Assembly: GCA_943356465.1 (NCBI GenBank)
Contig: CALREX010000003.1
Span: 46,450-110,449 of the forward strand
Origin: Candidatus Peribacteria bacterium
Lineage (GTDB): Bacteria > Patescibacteriota > Gracilibacteria > UBA1369 > LOWO2-01-FULL-3
DNA length: 64,000 nt
Direction of reading: 5' to 3'
Position numbers and translations under genes: made by a program. The notes beneath the pieces were generated by a model. The model ran no database searches, was not told where the DNA came from, and saw nothing but the letters and a program-made list of their open reading frames with translations. Positions 3,115 through 51,123 of the stretch are shown one piece after another. How positions within the stretch are numbered: position 1 is the stretch's first letter; each line of letters begins with the position of its first letter.

Positions 3115-4443
3115 CTATTGCTTAGGCGCAGATATAACACCAGTCGAACCTGAGACCGGAGCAACAGAGGCTTTCTTATAAAACACCTTTATTGTAGTAA
3201 TTGGCGTTTTATTCCCATCTTTATCGAGTCCATAAATCTCATAAATATTTTCACCTTCCTTCATGTAACCATAATCACTGTTTGCAAAATAAGACCACGT
3301 CTTATCCCCTGCCTTAAATTTCTTCAAAGTTAAGCCATTTACAACTATTGCAACAGCACCATTTGGATTTCCTAGAATAACGGCTGGATTCTCGGAAACT
3401 TGATAAACGCCTTTATCATCAGGTTTTGCACCGGCAACAGAAACTACAGTCGGCGCAGCCCCTACAGTTTTTGGAACTACAGCATCTTTTGGCTTATCAG
3501 TAGGAGTTTTACTTGCATCAGTTGTCGCAGTGGGATCAACTTTCGTACCATCAGGATTTGTAGCATCAACAGGCGCAGGAGCATCCGGCACACCGTCACC
3601 ATTAGTATCAATAGTAAGCACAGGCGTAGGAAGAACCTCAGGCTCAACTTTAACAAATTGTCCGTCACCTGTCGTAGATTTAACAAATTTAGTGGGATTT
3701 TTATCCTCACCTATATTCCAAAGATAAAATTCACCCGTTTTAAAAGCATCAGAAAGCGCAGAAAGAACACTAGGGCTCTTGAATTCATAGTAACTTTTAA
3801 GAACATCTTGTGTGAAAACAACCTCCTGCCCAACTCCGACATTTTCACTATCCACAACCTTATCACCAGCTTCATTTAATACATCTATGCCAACACTATC
3901 ACCAGCAATAACTCGCAATGCTTCATCAGTTTCATTTTCAAAATCAAAAATACTCTGCTTGTCGGACTTTACTACAACACTGTCCCCTCTCAACTCAACT
4001 TTTGTGCTGCCGGCAGTCGCTCCATAAACTTTATTTACCCAAACTTTTCCGTTCACAACAAGAAGGCTTATAGCAGGGCTTTTTGGGCTATCATCTATAA
4101 CACTCAAAATCACATCACTGCCTCCAGCAATTCTCATCACTGTTCCATCAAAAAATTCAGCAATTATTTTACTATCAGCCGAAGTCTTGAATTCATCCCC
4201 TTGAAGCACTAAAGCATCGGACGAAACACCAAAAAAATCTTGAGTATTCCAGGTTTTCATCTGAACACTTCCCTGTAAAATATGTAAATACGCTCCATTC
4301 ACAGATCTTCCTCCAAAAATAAAACTCCACAAATTAAAAACCAAAACTCCAATAATTCCAATACACACTATAACCAAAAACGGCATAATATAGCCTTTTC
4401 TTGATGGAGGCCTTCTCTGCGTTCGATAAGGAGAATAATACAT
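3115..4443 (-). CDS. membrane-anchored FecR-like domain protein with Pro/Thr-rich linker
   Basis: 442 aa. TM segment IMPFLVIVCIGIIGVLVFNLW; FecR-type pattern GSVQMKTWNTQ...LVLQGDEFKTSADSKIIAEFFDGTVMRIAGGSDVILS; PT-rich linker; beta-rich C-terminus. Confidence 0.7.
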   Translation of the reverse strand: MYYSPYRTQRRPPSRKGYIMPFLVIVCIGIIGVLVFNLWSFIFGGRSVNGAYLHILQGSVQMKTWNTQDFFGVSSDALVLQGDEFKTSADSKIIAEFFDGTVMRIAGGSDVILSVIDDSPKSPAISLLVVNGKVWVNKVYGATAGSTKVELRGDSVVVKSDKQSIFDFENETDEALRVIAGDSVGIDVLNEAGDKVVDSENVGVGQEVVFTQDVLKSYYEFKSPSVLSALSDAFKTGEFYLWNIGEDKNPTKFVKSTTGDGQFVKVEPEVLPTPVLTIDTNGDGVPDAPAPVDATNPDGTKVDPTATTDASKTPTDKPKDAVVPKTVGAAPTVVSVAGAKPDDKGVYQVSENPAVILGNPNGAVAIVVNGLTLKKFKAGDKTWSYFANSDYGYMKEGENIYEIYGLDKDGNKTPITTIKVFYKKASVAPVSGSTGVISAPKQ

Positions 4444-4527
4444 ATTTGAAGAATTTATTGATTTTTACCGCAAACATATTAGCGCAAAGTGCAGGAGAAT
4501 GGCAATAAAAATAGGGAAAATCGTTCA

Positions 4528-4557
4528 GTGTTGTTGAAGCCCCAACAACACTTTTTT
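4528..4557 (+). terminator. rho-independent terminator-like hairpin, plus-strand polarity
   Basis: The 9-bp stem gtgttgttg (4528-4536) pairs with caacaacac (4543-4551), followed by tttttt (4552-4557). There is no plus-strand gene upstream. Confidence 0.5.
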
Positions 4558-4569
4558 CACAATAAAATC

Positions 4570-4598
4570 TTGTCAAAAAAATCTAAATTTAATAGTAT
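4570..4598 (+). promoter_or_regulatory. sigma70-like promoter candidate (TTGTCA-17-TAGTAT)
   Basis: ttgtca at 4570-4575, a 17-nt spacer, then tagtat at 4593-4598. It sits upstream of the leader and tRNA-like gene. Confidence 0.35.
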
Positions 4599-4650
4599 AT
4601 AAGCGCAAACCAATGTGCCGTTGAATTACGGTCCTCATGGGTGACGCATA

Positions 4651-4676
4651 AGAATCCTTTGTAAAGAAGGATTTTT
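4651..4676 (+). terminator. hairpin plus T-run inside the leader (terminator/attenuator-like)
   Basis: agaatcctt (4651-4659) pairs with aaggatttt (4667-4675) across a 7-nt loop tgtaaag. The 3' arm runs into ttttt. Confidence 0.4.
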
Positions 4677-4706
4677 ATGTATGATTAAAGTACCTTGGTG
4701 GAACAT

Positions 4707-4782
4707 GGGGACAGAGTTTAATGGTAGAACACATTGGTTCGTCACCCATGAGATGCGGGTTCAAATCCCGTCAGCTCCACCA
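4707..4782 (+). tRNA. aberrant tRNA-like gene, anticodon CGU (Thr), defective acceptor stem; possible pseudo-tRNA or tRNA-like ncRNA
   Basis: Exactly 76 nt with encoded ACCA. D arm GTTT-AATGGTA-GAAC; anticodon arm ATTGG-TTCGTCA-CCCAT; T arm GCGGG-TTCAAAT-CCCGT. Acceptor 5' strand GGGGACA against 3' strand CAGCTCC pairs only at positions 1-4 (including G3:U70). Pairs 5:68, 6:67 and 7:66 are mismatches. Confidence 0.5.
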
Positions 4783-4796
4783 AGGCGTAAAAATAA

Positions 4797-4826
4797 TTGA
4801 CATAATGCGTTCAATACAGATATAAT
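4797..4826 (+). promoter_or_regulatory. consensus sigma70 promoter candidate (TTGACA-18-TATAAT)
   Basis: ttgaca at 4797-4802, an 18-nt spacer, then tataat at 4821-4826. About 75 nt downstream lies the 4881-4907 terminator. Confidence 0.4.
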
Positions 4827-4880
4827 GTAAACGTAGCCAGAGTGCTGTTACACAACAGTTTCTCTCGGGTGTCGCAAAAA

Positions 4881-4907
4881 GCTCTTCCTATCGGAAGAGT
4901 CTTTTTT
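4881..4907. terminator. bidirectional rho-independent terminator (ends dnaA; could also end a short plus-strand transcript)
   Basis: gctcttcc (4881-4888) pairs with ggaagagt (4893-4900) across loop tatc. It is flanked by aaaaa upstream and tttttt downstream. Confidence 0.7.
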
Positions 4908-4970
4908 GTTATTCGTAACAAAACAATAAATTCAACATTGATAAAAGACATAATATAACGAGCTTCCACC

Positions 4971-9800: not shown

Positions 9801-10208
9801 TTACATCTTAAACAAAATATAAGTAAGCGCTATCCCAAGCGCAATTCCTATTACAAAAATAAGAGGGACTTTATGCCCGCTGTCGGTTTCTTCTTCATCA
9901 TGAGCATTCGCAATATCAGCAAGAAGATCAGTCGAAATTATCACATCATCATCCGAATGTTTTGCGACAATATCTTCATAAGCATGGCTCGCAATTAAAT
10001 TTACAAATTTATCAAATTTAATTTTAACTTTATCGTTAGGCCTTAAGCTTGATTCCTCCGCTACAGAAATAGACGAAGCCCCCATCGCAGTAACAGCTTT
10101 ATCAACAGGATCATCAACAATCGTAGTTCTCTGTCCTATGCGGAATTCTGCACCTTCATCATTTCTGCGTTTTCCCCTCAAATCAATGATATCATCATCG
10201 TTATACAT
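9801..10208 (-). CDS. hypothetical protein with C-terminal membrane anchor
   Basis: 135 aa and acidic, with a single C-terminal hydrophobic segment PLIFVIGIALGIALTYILF. It sits tightly between pyrH and the upstream surface-protein gene. Confidence 0.6.
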   Translation of the reverse strand: MYNDDDIIDLRGKRRNDEGAEFRIGQRTTIVDDPVDKAVTAMGASSISVAEESSLRPNDKVKIKFDKFVNLIASHAYEDIVAKHSDDDVIISTDLLADIANAHDEEETDSGHKVPLIFVIGIALGIALTYILFKM

Positions 10209-40685: not shown

Positions 40686-41984
40686 ATGAATATAGTATCA
40701 ACCCAAAGCTATGAAATCTTATTCTCAAACAACAGAGATAAGTATTATTTCATAATACTAAAAAACAATCCTGGGCGAGATTTTTTTCTAGCAAATATTT
40801 CAAAAGATAAAATAATAGATATAGAAGCAAAAGAAAGTTCACTTTCGGAAACAGAACTGATAAAAAGATCTGGATTCTTAAAAAAATTAAAAGAAAAAAA
40901 GATAGAGGCATACTACCTAAACAGCCTTTCCTCAAGCCCTTTAGACAAATGGGCAAAGAAAAATAAAATAAAATTATTATCTCCCACTTGGGCTCTTCAA
41001 AAAAAACTCGAAGATAAAATATTTTTCGACAAACTTTTGAAAAAAAATAAAGTTTCGTCCCCATTTAGCGTAATTCCAAAAAAAGAAAAAGATATAGAAT
41101 CAATCACAAAATTCCCGGGAGTTGTACAAGTGCCATATAGCCATGGATCGCAAGGAACATTCTTGGTAAAAGATAAAAAAGAAATATTTGAATTATTGAA
41201 AAACAAGAAAATGAAATTTCCATTTTTATATCGCGAATTTATAAAAGGACTACCTGTTGGAGTCACTCTTCTTCTAAGCAAGAAAGAGATGATTTTCTCT
41301 AGCATAAGAGGACAAGCAATCATGCTGGACAGCAAAAACACAAACAAATATCTTGGAATTCAGTGGATGAAAACTTCAGAATTTAAAAAAGAAGGAATAA
41401 AAAATCTCAATAAAACACTTATATCAATGGGGAAAGTTTTACAAAAATTAAAACTTTACGGAACAGCTAGTATAGACCTAATAATAAGAGATAATGATGT
41501 TTTTGTAATCGAATGCAATCCAAGACTTTCACTATCAAGCATCCAAATGTCCCAGAGAAAAGAGCTAATACATGGATACGATTTTAATGAAGAGTTCATA
41601 AAAGGCCTGTTTGGACATAAACTTTCAGCAAATAAACCATTTGTTCCAAACACAACTTACGAAGGATGCACTTTGGATTTGGACTTTTTCGAAAACAAAT
41701 TAAGCGGTAAAAAAACAAAAAGAGTTCACAAAATAGGAATGTACAAAATAAAAAATGGAACTTTACAATATCTGTCCGACAAAATGAAAGATTTTAAAAA
41801 CAAAGATATAATTTTTGTAGACCACAAACTTGAAAAAAACGTAGTACTAAGCCCAAAAGACGACTACGGAATGGTGATTTCACACCACCCTGTCGTAAAG
41901 ATAGAACATGGAACTTTCTCTATCAAAGACAAGAATAAAATCTTGGCAGGAATAGAAAAATTACTTCTTTCAAACACTAAATAG
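40686..41984 (+). CDS. divergent ATP-grasp-like protein
   Basis: 432 aa, starting 2 nt after the preceding stop. FPGVVQVPYSHGSQGTFLVKDKKE, LYREFIKGLPVGVTLL, ASIDLIIRDNDVFVIECNPRLS. Confidence 0.65.
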   Translation: MNIVSTQSYEILFSNNRDKYYFIILKNNPGRDFFLANISKDKIIDIEAKESSLSETELIKRSGFLKKLKEKKIEAYYLNSLSSSPLDKWAKKNKIKLLSPTWALQKKLEDKIFFDKLLKKNKVSSPFSVIPKKEKDIESITKFPGVVQVPYSHGSQGTFLVKDKKEIFELLKNKKMKFPFLYREFIKGLPVGVTLLLSKKEMIFSSIRGQAIMLDSKNTNKYLGIQWMKTSEFKKEGIKNLNKTLISMGKVLQKLKLYGTASIDLIIRDNDVFVIECNPRLSLSSIQMSQRKELIHGYDFNEEFIKGLFGHKLSANKPFVPNTTYEGCTLDLDFFENKLSGKKTKRVHKIGMYKIKNGTLQYLSDKMKDFKNKDIIFVDHKLEKNVVLSPKDDYGMVISHHPVVKIEHGTFSIKDKNKILAGIEKLLLSNTK

Positions 41985-42888
41985 TAAGAACAAACTGCGG
42001 AATTGTTTTAAACAATTTTTCTTTATAGGACCCTTCTTCACTTTCTGCAAAATCAATCAATTTTAGACCTAAAGAAAGAGCATCTTGCATATCAAGCAAT
42101 GTAAGATAATGCCCTATTCCGGGACATTTGATCGTATCGTTTCCACACAACATAGTGTAATAAACATCTCCACAAATAAAATTCAGATCAACCCCAACGA
42201 TTTCACCATTAACCTTCACGGAAATCATTCTGCTTTTATATTTTCCACCATTTTTTCCATTTTCGATGATACGGTTAAAGGTCTTGATAATGCGCTCATC
42301 CTTGAACGGAGAATCAGAAAACTTATCTGAGTTAAATCTCATCAGTGCATTTAAATCTTCAAAATGATCGAAAAGAATTTCAGGATTTAATTCATCAACT
42401 CTTTTTTTATCTCTCCTCAAATTTTGTCGAAGTTTCGTGTTTATAGTCATAAAGAAATCATCAACAGAATTAATACCATCGAGATTTAAAACTTGTTTTG
42501 GATCAGACTTCAAAAGCCTATCATCCCCTACTAAAAAATCACACGCACTTTCCTTCAAACTATTTAAAACAGTCGATTTCGGACAAGCATCAATCAAAGA
42601 TTTTAAATATTTTTTGTCTTTTATCCAAAAAGAATTTTCTTCCTGCCAATTAAATCCGTCACCAATATCTCCAAACCAAAAATATTTATTTTTATCACTA
42701 ATATACCAAAGAGGCAGCAAACCAACATTTCGATTTTCGTCCTGCAGAAGAACAAAATGGAAGTCATACTTAAAAAATTCAAAAAAAGAAAAACGAAAAT
42801 CCCATTCATCAAAAATCGACAAATGTGGAGAAAATTCTTCCCATAATTTTTTACACTCATCTCTATTTTCAACAAAAATTGCATTCAT
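41977..42888 (-). CDS. FemAB-like / GNAT-fold (Acetyltransf_6, CelD/BioF2-like) transferase candidate
   Basis: 303 aa. Size and C-terminal pattern (...ISVKVNGEIVGVDLNF...GIGHYLTLLDMQDALSLGLKLIDFAESEEGSYKEKLF) resemble that family. The assignment is from memory only. Confidence 0.5.
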   Translation of the reverse strand: MNAIFVENRDECKKLWEEFSPHLSIFDEWDFRFSFFEFFKYDFHFVLLQDENRNVGLLPLWYISDKNKYFWFGDIGDGFNWQEENSFWIKDKKYLKSLIDACPKSTVLNSLKESACDFLVGDDRLLKSDPKQVLNLDGINSVDDFFMTINTKLRQNLRRDKKRVDELNPEILFDHFEDLNALMRFNSDKFSDSPFKDERIIKTFNRIIENGKNGGKYKSRMISVKVNGEIVGVDLNFICGDVYYTMLCGNDTIKCPGIGHYLTLLDMQDALSLGLKLIDFAESEEGSYKEKLFKTIPQFVLTI

Positions 42889-49848: not shown

Positions 49849-51123
49849 TTAAATCTTTTTCACCAAAACTTTATCAATTCTCCTTCCATCCAAATCAACA
49901 ATTTCAAATTCAAAACCACTATGTACAAACTTTGCACCTTCTTTTGGAACTCTTTTCAAATGATGGATAATAAATCCCGCCAAAGTCACATAATCCTGGG
50001 ATTTTTCGCTGATAATTTTTGCACCAAGAGATTTATTTAATTGATGAATCTGTATTCCACCATCGACTAAAAATGAATAATCATCACGCACAACAATATC
50101 CGGATCAACCTCATCGTCAAATTCAGGAAGCTCCCCAACAATCGCCTCAGTCAAATCATGAAGAGTGATTATTCCCTCTACATCGCCAAATTCATCTACA
50201 ACGATTCCAATATATTGTTTGCGTTTTTTAAATAATTTCAAGATATCAAAAGCATTCATATTCTCAGGAATAAAAATCGGCTCGCTCATAATTCTTTTTA
50301 TCGAAAATCTTTTTTGTTTTCTTCTTTCAAAAAAATCTTCGGCGGTAATTATTCCTTTTATTTTATCCAAATCACCATCGCAGACAGGAAATTTGGAGTA
50401 AGGACTTTCTTTGATTTTTTTCTCGATATCTTCAAGTTTTTCATTTACATCAATCCACTCAATATCATTTGAATTTGTTTGTAAATTTTTTGCTTTTTGA
50501 TCGGAAAAGAAAAATATATTTTGATGCATTTGTGTTTCTTCTTTCTCCAAGACACCCTGTTTTCCAGCAGTCTTAAGCAAATATTTGATTTCATCCTCGG
50601 TAAGATCATCTCTGACTTTTTTATGAATTCTGAAAATTTTCAAAATTAATGTTGTAGAAAATGAAAAGATTTTTGCAAAAGGATAACTCAAATTTGAGAA
50701 AAATTTCACAAACGGCACCATGAAAAGCGCAATCTGTTCGGAATAATTCAAAGCAACAGTTTTTGGAATTAATTCTCCGAAAACAATTGAAAAATATGTT
50801 ATAAGTGCGACAATTATTATAAAAGATATTCCTGAGGCATATGCAGAAAAGAGCTCAATTCGTTGAACATAAGGGACAAGATCTTTCGTCAAAGTAGCTC
50901 CACCATACGCACCGGAGATTATACTTATCAAAGTTATTCCAACCTGAACAGAAGACAAAAAACCTTCAGGATGTTTCAAAAGATTTAAAACCATCTGTGC
51001 CCTCTTGCTCCCCTTCAATGCCATTTGCTCTATCCTATGCCTTTTTACAGATATAATAGCAATTTCAGACAACGAAAAAAGTCCGTTAAACAGAGTTAAT
51101 ATTATAAGAACAAGAATTCCCAT
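49849..51123 (-). CDS. CNNM/HlyC-CorC family transporter (DUF21-CBS-CorC_HlyC)
   Basis: 424 aa. N-terminal DUF21 TM block, CBS pair, C-terminal transporter-associated domain. Confidence 0.88.
   Translation of the reverse strand: MGILVLIILTLFNGLFSLSEIAIISVKRHRIEQMALKGSKRAQMVLNLLKHPEGFLSSVQVGITLISIISGAYGGATLTKDLVPYVQRIELFSAYASGISFIIIVALITYFSIVFGELIPKTVALNYSEQIALFMVPFVKFFSNLSYPFAKIFSFSTTLILKIFRIHKKVRDDLTEDEIKYLLKTAGKQGVLEKEETQMHQNIFFFSDQKAKNLQTNSNDIEWIDVNEKLEDIEKKIKESPYSKFPVCDGDLDKIKGIITAEDFFERRKQKRFSIKRIMSEPIFIPENMNAFDILKLFKKRKQYIGIVVDEFGDVEGIITLHDLTEAIVGELPEFDDEVDPDIVVRDDYSFLVDGGIQIHQLNKSLGAKIISEKSQDYVTLAGFIIHHLKRVPKEGAKFVHSGFEFEIVDLDGRRIDKVLVKKI

Follow-up and report, generated by a model that had tools for sequence, protein, structure and literature searches.

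A tRNA-like element of 76 nucleotides (nt) on a 64,000-nt stretch of a Candidatus Peribacteria genome (GenBank assembly GCA_943356465.1, contig CALREX010000003.1, positions 46,450 to 110,449; the whole stretch is referred to here as the window) is best read, from comparison with related sequences, as a true member, recently broken and now disabled, of a conserved two-RNA module found in Peregrinibacteria-type bacteria of the candidate phyla radiation (CPR). In the explanation that accounts best for the observations, and in which we place somewhat better than even confidence, the module pairs an alanine-type tRNA-like RNA with a small RNA that is antisense to it and that would mask it. The module is apparently undescribed, as nothing was found in a literature search for a matching one. 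The analysed genome (G000) comprises 1.08 Mb in 7 contigs, and coordinates of the element (tRNA-like A), of its small RNA (leader A), and of their neighbors are given as window positions (Table 1).

The tRNA-like element and its family

An earlier reading of this DNA, made from the sequence alone (the sequence-only reading), had described a 76-nt cloverleaf with a D arm (GTTT-AATGGTA-GAAC), a T arm (GCGGG-TTCAAAT-CCCGT), and an encoded ACCA end, acceptor pairs 1-4 of G:C, G:C, G:U, and G:C that include a G3:U70 wobble, acceptor mismatches at 5:68 (A/G), 6:67 (C/A), and 7:66 (A/C), a U/C mismatch in the anticodon stem, and C at position 37. Each of these features is found in the sequence at 4707-4782 (GGGGACAGAGTTTAATGGTAGAACACATTGGTTCGTCACCCATGAGATGCGGGTTCAAATCCCGTCAGCTCCACCA), where both arms are normal. 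Overlooked in that reading was position 8, which is G in place of the near-universal U. A73 is present and, together with G3:U70, G2:C71, and G4:C69, makes up the identity set of tRNA-Ala on a stem that is broken below pair 4. The anticodon stem (CATTGG/CCCATG) comprises 6 pairs including the U/C mismatch, and the 7-nt loop (TTCGTCA) carries U33, the anticodon CGT, and C37. The Rfam tRNA model (RF00005) scores the element above its gathering score of 29 bits and far below the two ordinary tRNAs of the window (60.7 and 66.4 bits); the resemblance to tRNA is more than chance. ARAGORN did not call the element in the window or in the whole genome, and the seven-pair acceptor stem, U8, five-pair anticodon stem, and purine at position 37 of a canonical tRNA are all lacking, the last two likewise across the family described below. 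In the whole genome, ARAGORN identified 38 tRNAs, among them canonical tRNA-Thr genes with CGT, TGT, and GGT anticodons, and one normal transfer-messenger RNA (tmRNA) at C1 c112898-113296. With canonical threonine tRNAs and a tmRNA encoded elsewhere, tRNA-like A is not needed for decoding.

The family to which the element belongs was delimited with two models: R1, a covariance model that spans the entire unit in 188 positions, and R2, which covers the leader. E-values from these models are rough; the gap in bit score between family members and ordinary tRNAs is wide. A total of 35 strong full-length matches to R1 (57-216 bits) were recovered in 25 of the 205 genomes of the order, from six families, and matches below 57 bits were ordinary tRNAs only. 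Sampling of the class gave matches at E <= 1e-14 in 37 of 401 genomes, which belong to many families, and some of these genomes carry 3-4 copies. The family is widespread yet patchy. Its members share an alanine acceptor (G1-G4, G3:U70, A73, and encoded CCA), D and T arms that are normal, and an anticodon arm in which a 6-bp stem, nearly always with a mismatch, carries a Y-U-N-R-N-C-A loop. Among 25 aligned units, G3:U70 is present in 22, while G2:C71, G4:C69, and G49:U65 are each present in all 25, and the top of the acceptor and the T arm are almost invariant. In the leader, the sequence of the P2 hairpin and a GGGTG motif are conserved beyond the needs of pairing.

As read from the listings, Thr-type (NGU) and Ser-type (NGA) triplets make up most of the family "anticodons"; a few are of the Pro, Leu, Ala, or Arg types, and NGC occurs in one member only. 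With C at position 37 and with covariation between the leader and bases 34 and 36, these triplets resemble an address more than a codon reader. ARAGORN names family members (L004, L005, L006, L031, and L032) tRNA-Thr, -Asp, -Ser, or -Arg, depending on the reading of the loop; the canonical tRNA of the analysed genome that lies closest to a hidden Markov model (HMM) of the tRNA-like RNA is tRNA-Ala, at 28.6 bits. One suggestion of the sequence-only reading was an alanine-identity tRNA that reads ACG. Its alanine half holds up, as these marks are genuine and have been retained among the roughly 50 family members that were compared. Its decoding half is doubtful for tRNA-like A, given C37, the 6-bp mismatched stem, and "anticodons" that covary with a partner RNA. 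Two members (L057, G023:C6 ~50196-50375; L070, G110:C8 ~10051-10200) carry a homologous insert of ~50 nt with a GC-rich hairpin (ACGACCATCCTTCG..ATGGTGCCCGTG). The insertion point is identical in both, in the 3' strand of the acceptor between ..GTCAG/GTCGG and ..CCACCA, and the insert could be a small intron-like or mobile insertion.

The element departs from its family in the acceptor. Where members have an intact 7-pair Ala-type acceptor (GGGGYYG/CRRCTCC) and U8, the element reads GGGGACAG instead of the family's GGGGCTGT. A syntenic copy in a sister species (G002), which shares the upstream gene and the whole cassette, reads GGGGCTGTAG as compared with GGGGACAGAG in the element. As the ACAG of the element is the exact reverse complement of the CTGT in that copy, pairs 5:68, 6:67, and 7:66 were lost, together with U8, through one inversion of 4 nt. 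In no other listed family member are all three of pairs 5-7 broken. The predicted share of the cloverleaf in the folding ensemble is 1.6e-7 for the element as it stands and 0.13 with the four bases re-inverted (a change made for the analysis only), and by this prediction tRNA-like A itself can hardly form an acceptor stem. An intact paralog is encoded in the same genome at C1 c130327-130402, where ARAGORN labels it tRNA-Thr(TGT). Its acceptor (GGGGCTG/CGGCTCC) is intact with G3:U70, and it agrees with the element in the T arm, the 3' end, C37, and a 6-pair stem that contains a mismatch. The two copies also have ~230 nt of upstream sequence in common, including a terminator hairpin, a TTGTCA-17-TAGTAT promoter, a ~75-nt leader with two hairpins (a T-run closes the second), and the P4 strand. 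With its acceptor broken by the inversion, tRNA-like A is probably dead, and its leader is still intact. A third, heavily decayed tRNA-like copy is found in the same genome (C2:24518-24578, minus strand); it consists of the 3' half only, with a destroyed T stem, ends in CTTCACCA, and has no leader near it.

The last ~31 nt of the element are ~90% identical to Escherichia coli ssrA, and the sequence-only reading was right to remark on this near-ssrA end. The resemblance is generic, however, and reflects a T arm and an alanine-type acceptor strand, because the 3' end of the genome's own tmRNA differs from the element at 5 of 28 positions. A decaying or chimeric tRNA with a replaced 3' part had been proposed in that reading, and of that proposal the decay stands and the replacement does not: the lesion lies in the 5' strand, and the 3' part is normal for the family. 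A tRNA-Thr with a 3' part swapped in by recombination from ssrA or tRNA-Ala would account for the ssrA-like end and for a 3' acceptor strand equal to that of the genome's tRNA-Ala. Yet every family member has the same 3' part plus a matching 5' strand, the lesion is an inversion, and the body of tRNA-like A is unlike the tRNA-Thr genes of the genome. A chimera with either donor is refuted by the intact paralog and the orthologs, and we leave this idea next to no chance of being correct. A tmRNA or two-piece tmRNA is likewise ruled out: ssrA is located elsewhere, the tmRNA_permuted model scores 12.4 bits at this site compared with a gathering score of 47, no tag frame is present, and ARAGORN found no complete tmRNA spanning the site. 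Nor was a different, fully paired fold found for tRNA-like A. As had been observed in the sequence-only reading, no GGGGCTG strand occurs nearby; its only two occurrences in the window, at 3456 and 26892, are on the minus strand, which leaves the element without another candidate 5' strand close by.

Complementarity between the leader and the tRNA-like RNA

The pairing between leader and tRNA-like RNA was scored as a "cross" structure in the 25 units aligned to the model. In this structure, segment S1 of the leader pairs with the 5' strand of the anticodon stem (6-10 nt), segment S2 pairs with loop positions 34-38 and the 3' strand of that stem (11 nt), the 3' strand of the P2 hairpin pairs with tRNA positions 4-8 (4-14 in many members), and the P4 flank pairs with the CCA end and trailer. 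Standard pairs fill 93.1% of the cells, and two-sided changes occur in 23 of 34 pairs (115 cells). None of 500 shuffles reached these values, and sliding the partners by 1-3 columns reduced pairing to 32-40%. The count for the cross pairs is conservative, because the units had been aligned on the competing local-hairpin structure. That structure shows 95-99% pairing in P2 (99%), in P3 (95%, with two-sided changes in 12 of its 13 pairs), in the acceptor, and in both the D and the T arm. The local helices that compete with the cross are weak: leader helix P1 is 78.0% paired and the anticodon stem 82.6%, with the fourth pair of the latter unpaired in 14 of 24 sequences. The mismatches of both hairpins, A/G in the leader and Y/C in the tRNA-like RNA, become Watson-Crick pairs in the heteroduplex.

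The first seven pairs of P4 are 94.8% paired, six of them with two-sided changes, trailer bases included, and in an extended 12-pair version the main nine-pair stretch is 92% paired. This pairing is present in the minimum-free-energy fold of the element's unit, in which 11 of 12 positions are paired. A run of T residues (>=4 T) follows the 3' strand of P4 in about 20 of 46 members, as read from the listing, and in none of the element's genus. The helix may double as a terminator for the tRNA-like RNA in those ~20 members; as a general terminator stem, P4 was rejected given this distribution.

Six members from other orders stood outside model building. Five of these have S2 paired directly at 10-11 of 11 positions, and the sixth (L083), which has a 5-pair stem, fits in the correct register with one wobble; trailers differ among these members, and each P4 strand matches the trailer of its own unit. 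Pairing is also specific within genomes. Among genomes with several copies (G110, G196, G226, G269, G296, G065, and G000), the neighboring leader pairs at 10-11 of 11 positions and the leaders of other units at 6.5-9.5, with one exception in G002, where a second leader ties at 10 for one unit. The element is a full member by whole-unit score and by its pairing in S1, S2, and P4 (Table 1), and its own leader is the best match to it among the three leaders of the genome. Predicted cofolding gains there are -7.0 and -10.2 kcal/mol for the cognate pairs and between -3.4 and +0.1 for four non-cognate pairs. The anticodon arm of tRNA-like A is the only site in the genome with an exact complement to S2, besides the reverse strand of S2 itself, and no other targets of the three leaders beyond chance were found in the genome, canonical tRNAs and mRNAs included.

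The simplest reading of these observations, and a reasonably probable one, is a dedicated off-switch, in which the small RNA would mask or unfold the tRNA-like RNA of its own unit. The loop of the tRNA-like RNA probably forms a U-turn, and U-turn loops are used by antisense RNAs for fast nucleation. The sequences show how the module is built, that its segments covary and pair specifically, that its gene order varies, and that the acceptor features of tRNA-Ala are strictly retained; beyond this, we infer the following order of binding. First, the leader would nucleate on the U-turn loop (Y32-U33-N34-R35), with its single-stranded TG-N-C-N pairing to loop positions 34-38. Second, pairing would invade the mismatch-weakened anticodon stem by strand exchange. 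Third, the freed 5' strand of that stem would pair with S1, giving a junction of two intermolecular helices. Finally, by pairing with positions 4-8 (4-14 in many members) and with the CCA end, P2 and P4, respectively, would pull the acceptor stem apart or keep the precursor closed. The predicted outcome is a tRNA-like RNA whose lower half is opened or masked and which is turned off copy by copy. The retention of G3:U70, A73, and G1-G4 suggests that the free form is a substrate of alanyl-tRNA synthetase (AlaRS) and is charged by it. The sequence-only reading had also considered a tRNA-like regulatory RNA, which of its three proposals comes nearest to the present one. The present data bear this out insofar as a non-canonical tRNA-like family with an antisense partner is concerned; the role of regulator does not carry over, as the tRNA-like RNA appears to be the regulated party.

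The same pairing can be read the other way around, such that the leader-bound complex is the working molecule and presents an AlaRS-charged acceptor/T minihelix on a small-RNA junction, as an alanine carrier or a tRNA mimic outside decoding. Heteroduplexes that are better conserved than either hairpin, the near invariance of the acceptor top and T arm (including G49:U65 in every aligned unit), the conservation of P2 and GGGTG beyond pairing, and the almost constant adjacency of the partners fit such a molecule. We nevertheless consider it unlikely, since the 3' strand of P2 and the P4 flank are complementary to the acceptor strands and would undo the very part to be charged, since orphan leaders exist without a partner, and since no tRNA-dependent transferase co-occurs with the module. 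A FemAB-like tRNA-dependent transferase encoded in the window (41977-42888) was tried as a partner and rejected; it is present in 6 of the 205 genomes and does not co-occur with the module.

Gene order, accessory nature, and decay of the cassette

The leader is not always placed as in the element's cassette (Table 1). It lies downstream of the tRNA-like RNA on the same strand in G083 and G159, is convergent on the opposite strand in G063:C53, G065:C4, and G066 (with partial overlap in G066), and is separated from the tRNA-like RNA by roughly 100-150 nt in G196 and G197. A cognate leader is found within a few hundred bases of 49 of the 50 or so tRNA-like RNAs compared, the exception being G078:C14. 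Given this variable placement, including downstream and opposite-strand positions, the leader must act as a separate small RNA, in trans. This bears on whether the tRNA-like RNA might be an unusual but functional decoding tRNA behind a cis-acting leader for processing or attenuation, with self-feedback in the manner of a T-box. The direct upstream position in most members, the attenuator-like P3 hairpin with its T-run, and contacts to the anticodon and the NCCA end would suit that arrangement. It is largely refuted by leaders that stand downstream, on the opposite strand, or alone; moreover, Rfam returned no T-box match even at E <= 10, the segment that pairs with CCA comes after the terminator and is not part of an antiterminator, canonical tRNAs for all Thr anticodons are present in the genome, and the module is absent from most relatives. 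We regard a cis attenuator as very unlikely.

Table 1. Features of the cassette around tRNA-like A, in window positions.
Feature	Position	Strand	Basis
Upstream terminator hairpin GTGTTGTTG...CAACAACAC with T-run, 5' edge of cassette	4527..4558	+	Terminator scan
Candidate leader promoter TTGTCA-17-TAGTAT	4570..4598	+	Promoter scan, 9/12 matches
Leader small RNA A	4603..4681	+	Leader HMM 61.6 bits; leader model R2 77.9 bits
Leader A segments S1, P2 hairpin, and S2	S1 4610-4615 (extendable 4608-4617); P2 4617-4632; S2 4636-4646	+	S1, 3' strand of P2, and S2 pair with the tRNA-like RNA
Leader A P3, terminator-type hairpin	4647-4679, T-run 4672-4676	+	
P4 5' strand CCTTGGTGGAAC	4693..4704	+	Pairs with 3' end and trailer GCTCCACCAAGG at 4774-4785
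tRNA-like A (studied feature)	4707..4782	+	Rfam tRNA 34.1 bits; tRNA-like HMM 82.8 bits; whole-unit model R1 207 bits
ACAG, 4-nt inversion of family CTGT (tRNA positions 5-8)	4711..4714	+	Alignment to syntenic G002 copy and to paralog in G000
Anticodon arm CATTGG-TTCGTCA-CCCATG, target of leader S1 and S2	4732..4750	+	S1 6/6, S2 11/11 paired
Orphan leader B promoter TTGACA-18-TATAAT	4797..4826	+	Promoter scan, 12/12 matches
Orphan leader small RNA B (S1 CCAGAG, P2 hairpin, S2 CTCGGGTGTCG, terminator 4881-4900)	4834..4909	+	Leader HMM 42.8 bits; R2 61.6 bits

The similarity between the two copies of the analysed genome begins at the upstream terminator, the position of which is kept in the paralog and in the G002_a, G004, and G030 copies. 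The promoter-like site of the leader is nearly identical in the paralog and in the copies of G002 and G004, and transcription of leader A would start near 4603. The promoter scan found no sigma-70 promoter for tRNA-like A between P3 and P4; a TGTATNNT motif after P3 overlaps the P3 stem and has improper spacing for an extended -10 element. No consistent reading frame was found in the leader among the family sequences read. Directly after the broken tRNA-like RNA lies a second leader, B, which has the build of leader A and its own promoter and terminator, and which is non-cognate to tRNA-like A. No cognate tRNA-like RNA for leader B and no target for its S2 elsewhere were found in the genome. 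An ortholog of leader B is present in G002 (G002:C10:404-479), after a different unit, and G004 retains only the leader of a unit of the C1 type.

The cassette occupies a hot-spot (~4500-4970) between the 3' end of dnaA and a minus-strand gene of 442 amino acids (3115-4443) that has no Pfam match, and the content of this hot-spot varies within the genus (L133-L136). It is empty in G001, where hardly any sequence separates the tail of the upstream gene from the end of dnaA, and it holds the RNA cassette in G000 and G002, an unrelated gene in G003 (possibly reductase-like, judged by eye from N-terminal residues), another insert in G004, and a long inverted repeat in G005. No target-site duplications were found at the cassette edges by comparison with the empty site of G001. 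When G000 is compared with G002, near identity is seen in the flanks (about 85-90% identical), in P3 and P4, and in the D and T parts, whereas about half of the positions in S1, S2, the stem of P2, and the anticodon arm have changed with complementarity kept. By this comparison, the module is accessory and fast-evolving. Also located in the hot-spot of G004 (L135, G004:C9, ~150-250 nt after an anchor at locus position 2322) is a tRNA- or tmRNA-like 3' fragment ending in ..GGTCAGGGTTCGATTCCCTGTAGTTCCACC, followed by a terminator; it lies outside the family.

Such a pattern would also fit an RNA-only poison-antidote pair or a switch for mistranslation, in which the free alanine-charged tRNA-like RNA would read Thr, Ser, or Pro codons (here ACG) or otherwise poison translation, with the small RNA as the antidote. 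A layout of promoter, antisense RNA, leaky terminator, and effector would keep the antidote in excess. The patchy distribution, the several orthogonal copies in some genomes, the presence, absence, or replacement of the cassette at one hot-spot, and pairing segments that are only about 50% identical between syntenic copies with flanks at about 85-90% are all in keeping with this possibility. Decay, too, has struck the tRNA-like RNA and spared the leader at this locus and in G004, orphan leaders exist, and nearly all tRNA-like RNAs have a cognate leader. Moreover, hybrid-identity tRNAs have been shown to be toxic in E. coli (PMC10404621), and allo-tRNAs with G3:U70 insert alanine when given a suppressor anticodon (PMC5389517). 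Weighing in the other direction, decoding by RNAs with C37, which is not a purine, and a 6-bp mismatched stem would probably be inefficient, and loop bases 34 and 36 that covary with the leader point to a pairing address and not to a chosen codon reader. A poison-antidote pair seems improbable. In a bolder form, to which we would give a slim chance, the modules would be programmable all-RNA poison-antidote switches of CPR bacteria, with an alanine-charged effector that misinserts alanine at Thr, Ser, or Pro codons or jams translation whenever the short-lived antisense RNA falls. AlaRS ignores the anticodon arm, which in such a switch would be free to evolve. If so, the present locus would be a decaying module with its effector killed by inversion, its antidote kept, and a second, orphan antidote adjacent.

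Several points weigh against the masking of the tRNA-like RNA as the whole explanation. A pure off-switch does not explain a targetless orphan leader that is conserved in two species. Simultaneous pairing of S1 and S2 on the same arm would form a pseudoknot, the geometry of which is inferred, and binding of the leader could yield the working molecule and not the off state. No conserved protein partner was found within 1.5 kb of the module, only local synteny groups, and no pathway downstream of it was identified. Finally, the leader of the element is still perfectly complementary, so that the case for a dead copy comes from the acceptor lesion only.

If masking by the leader is nonetheless correct, the module would be a kind of RNA regulation without a description in Rfam or the literature searched, in which the sole conserved target of a small RNA is a tRNA-shaped, alanine-type RNA and in which a fast-evolving base-pairing "address" separates paralogous pairs. 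Such a module would bear on how hybrid-identity tRNAs are restrained, on non-decoding jobs of tRNA look-alikes in ultra-small bacteria, and on how RNA-RNA specificity diversifies. To this the present locus adds a dated decay event, in the form of a single inversion, and a clean empty-site comparison that shows the module to be accessory. There is also a practical consequence in that the names given by gene finders (tRNA-Thr, -Ser, -Asp, or -Arg) inflate tRNA counts and could mislead inference of the genetic code in CPR genomes.

Comparison with known systems

The family resembles both the tRNA-like domain of tmRNA and tRNA-Ala in G3:U70, A73, and ACCA, and in a very similar T arm and 3' strand. 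Unlike tmRNA, it has no tag frame, no pseudoknots, and no ARAGORN tmRNA call, and it has a complete D stem and an anticodon-type arm; unlike tRNA-Ala, its anticodon is not NGC in all but one member. T-box RNAs (RF00230) also contact a tRNA shape at the anticodon and at the 3' NCCA, through a UGG-containing strand. A T-box reads 3-4 bases, whereas the module pairs 11, 6-10, and 5 nt and would unfold the arm. The module also differs in lacking a Stem I platform and an antiterminator, in that the partner is a separate small RNA, and in that the regulated product is the tRNA-like RNA itself. A search of the leader region (4450-4960) at E <= 10 returned no T-box or other known Rfam family, only noise.

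The type I pairs hok/sok and Ibs/Sib, and CopA/CopT of plasmid R1, are cis-encoded antisense systems in which pairing nucleates at U-turns and proceeds by strand exchange. The module is like these systems in being a short cognate RNA pair with a likely nucleation loop (Y-U-N-R) and mismatch-weakened stems, in occurring as several orthogonal paralogs per genome, and in the fast co-evolution of its recognition segments. It is unlike these systems in that its target is an alanine-identity tRNA shape, which is not an mRNA and encodes neither a toxin peptide nor a replication protein, and in that its partners are not opposite strands of the same DNA, save for the partial overlap in G066. A type I toxin-antitoxin system would also be expected to encode a peptide, and no conserved open reading frame is present; the frame ATG-GGG-CTG-TAG, located where the tRNA-like RNA starts, stops after 3 codons in intact members. 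In ToxIN-type (type III) systems and the type VIII system CreTA, an RNA is protective, and the proteins involved are ToxN or Cascade. The order promoter, protective RNA, terminator, and effector, which would yield an excess of the protective RNA, is shared with the module, as is the possibility that both partners are RNA. In contrast to ToxIN and CreTA, no ToxN- or Cascade-like protein is conserved near the module.

Finally, several tRNAs of hybrid identity have been described. In Streptomyces and Kitasatospora, the tRNA-ProX family is paired with a special ProRS gene, and it is toxic in E. coli (PMC10404621). Allo-tRNAs that combine G3:U70 with a GCG or UUA anticodon insert alanine in E. coli when given a suppressor anticodon (PMC5389517), and a putative Ala-tRNA(CCG) has been described in a clade of Clostridia (bioRxiv 10.64898/2026.04.02.715157). 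None of these has a partner RNA, whereas the "anticodon" of the family described here covaries with one and is followed by C37 in an arm with a mismatched 6-pair stem. What the family and the hybrid-identity tRNAs have in common is the identity of one amino acid combined with the anticodons of others, a patchy, accessory distribution, and a tendency to be misnamed by their anticodons.

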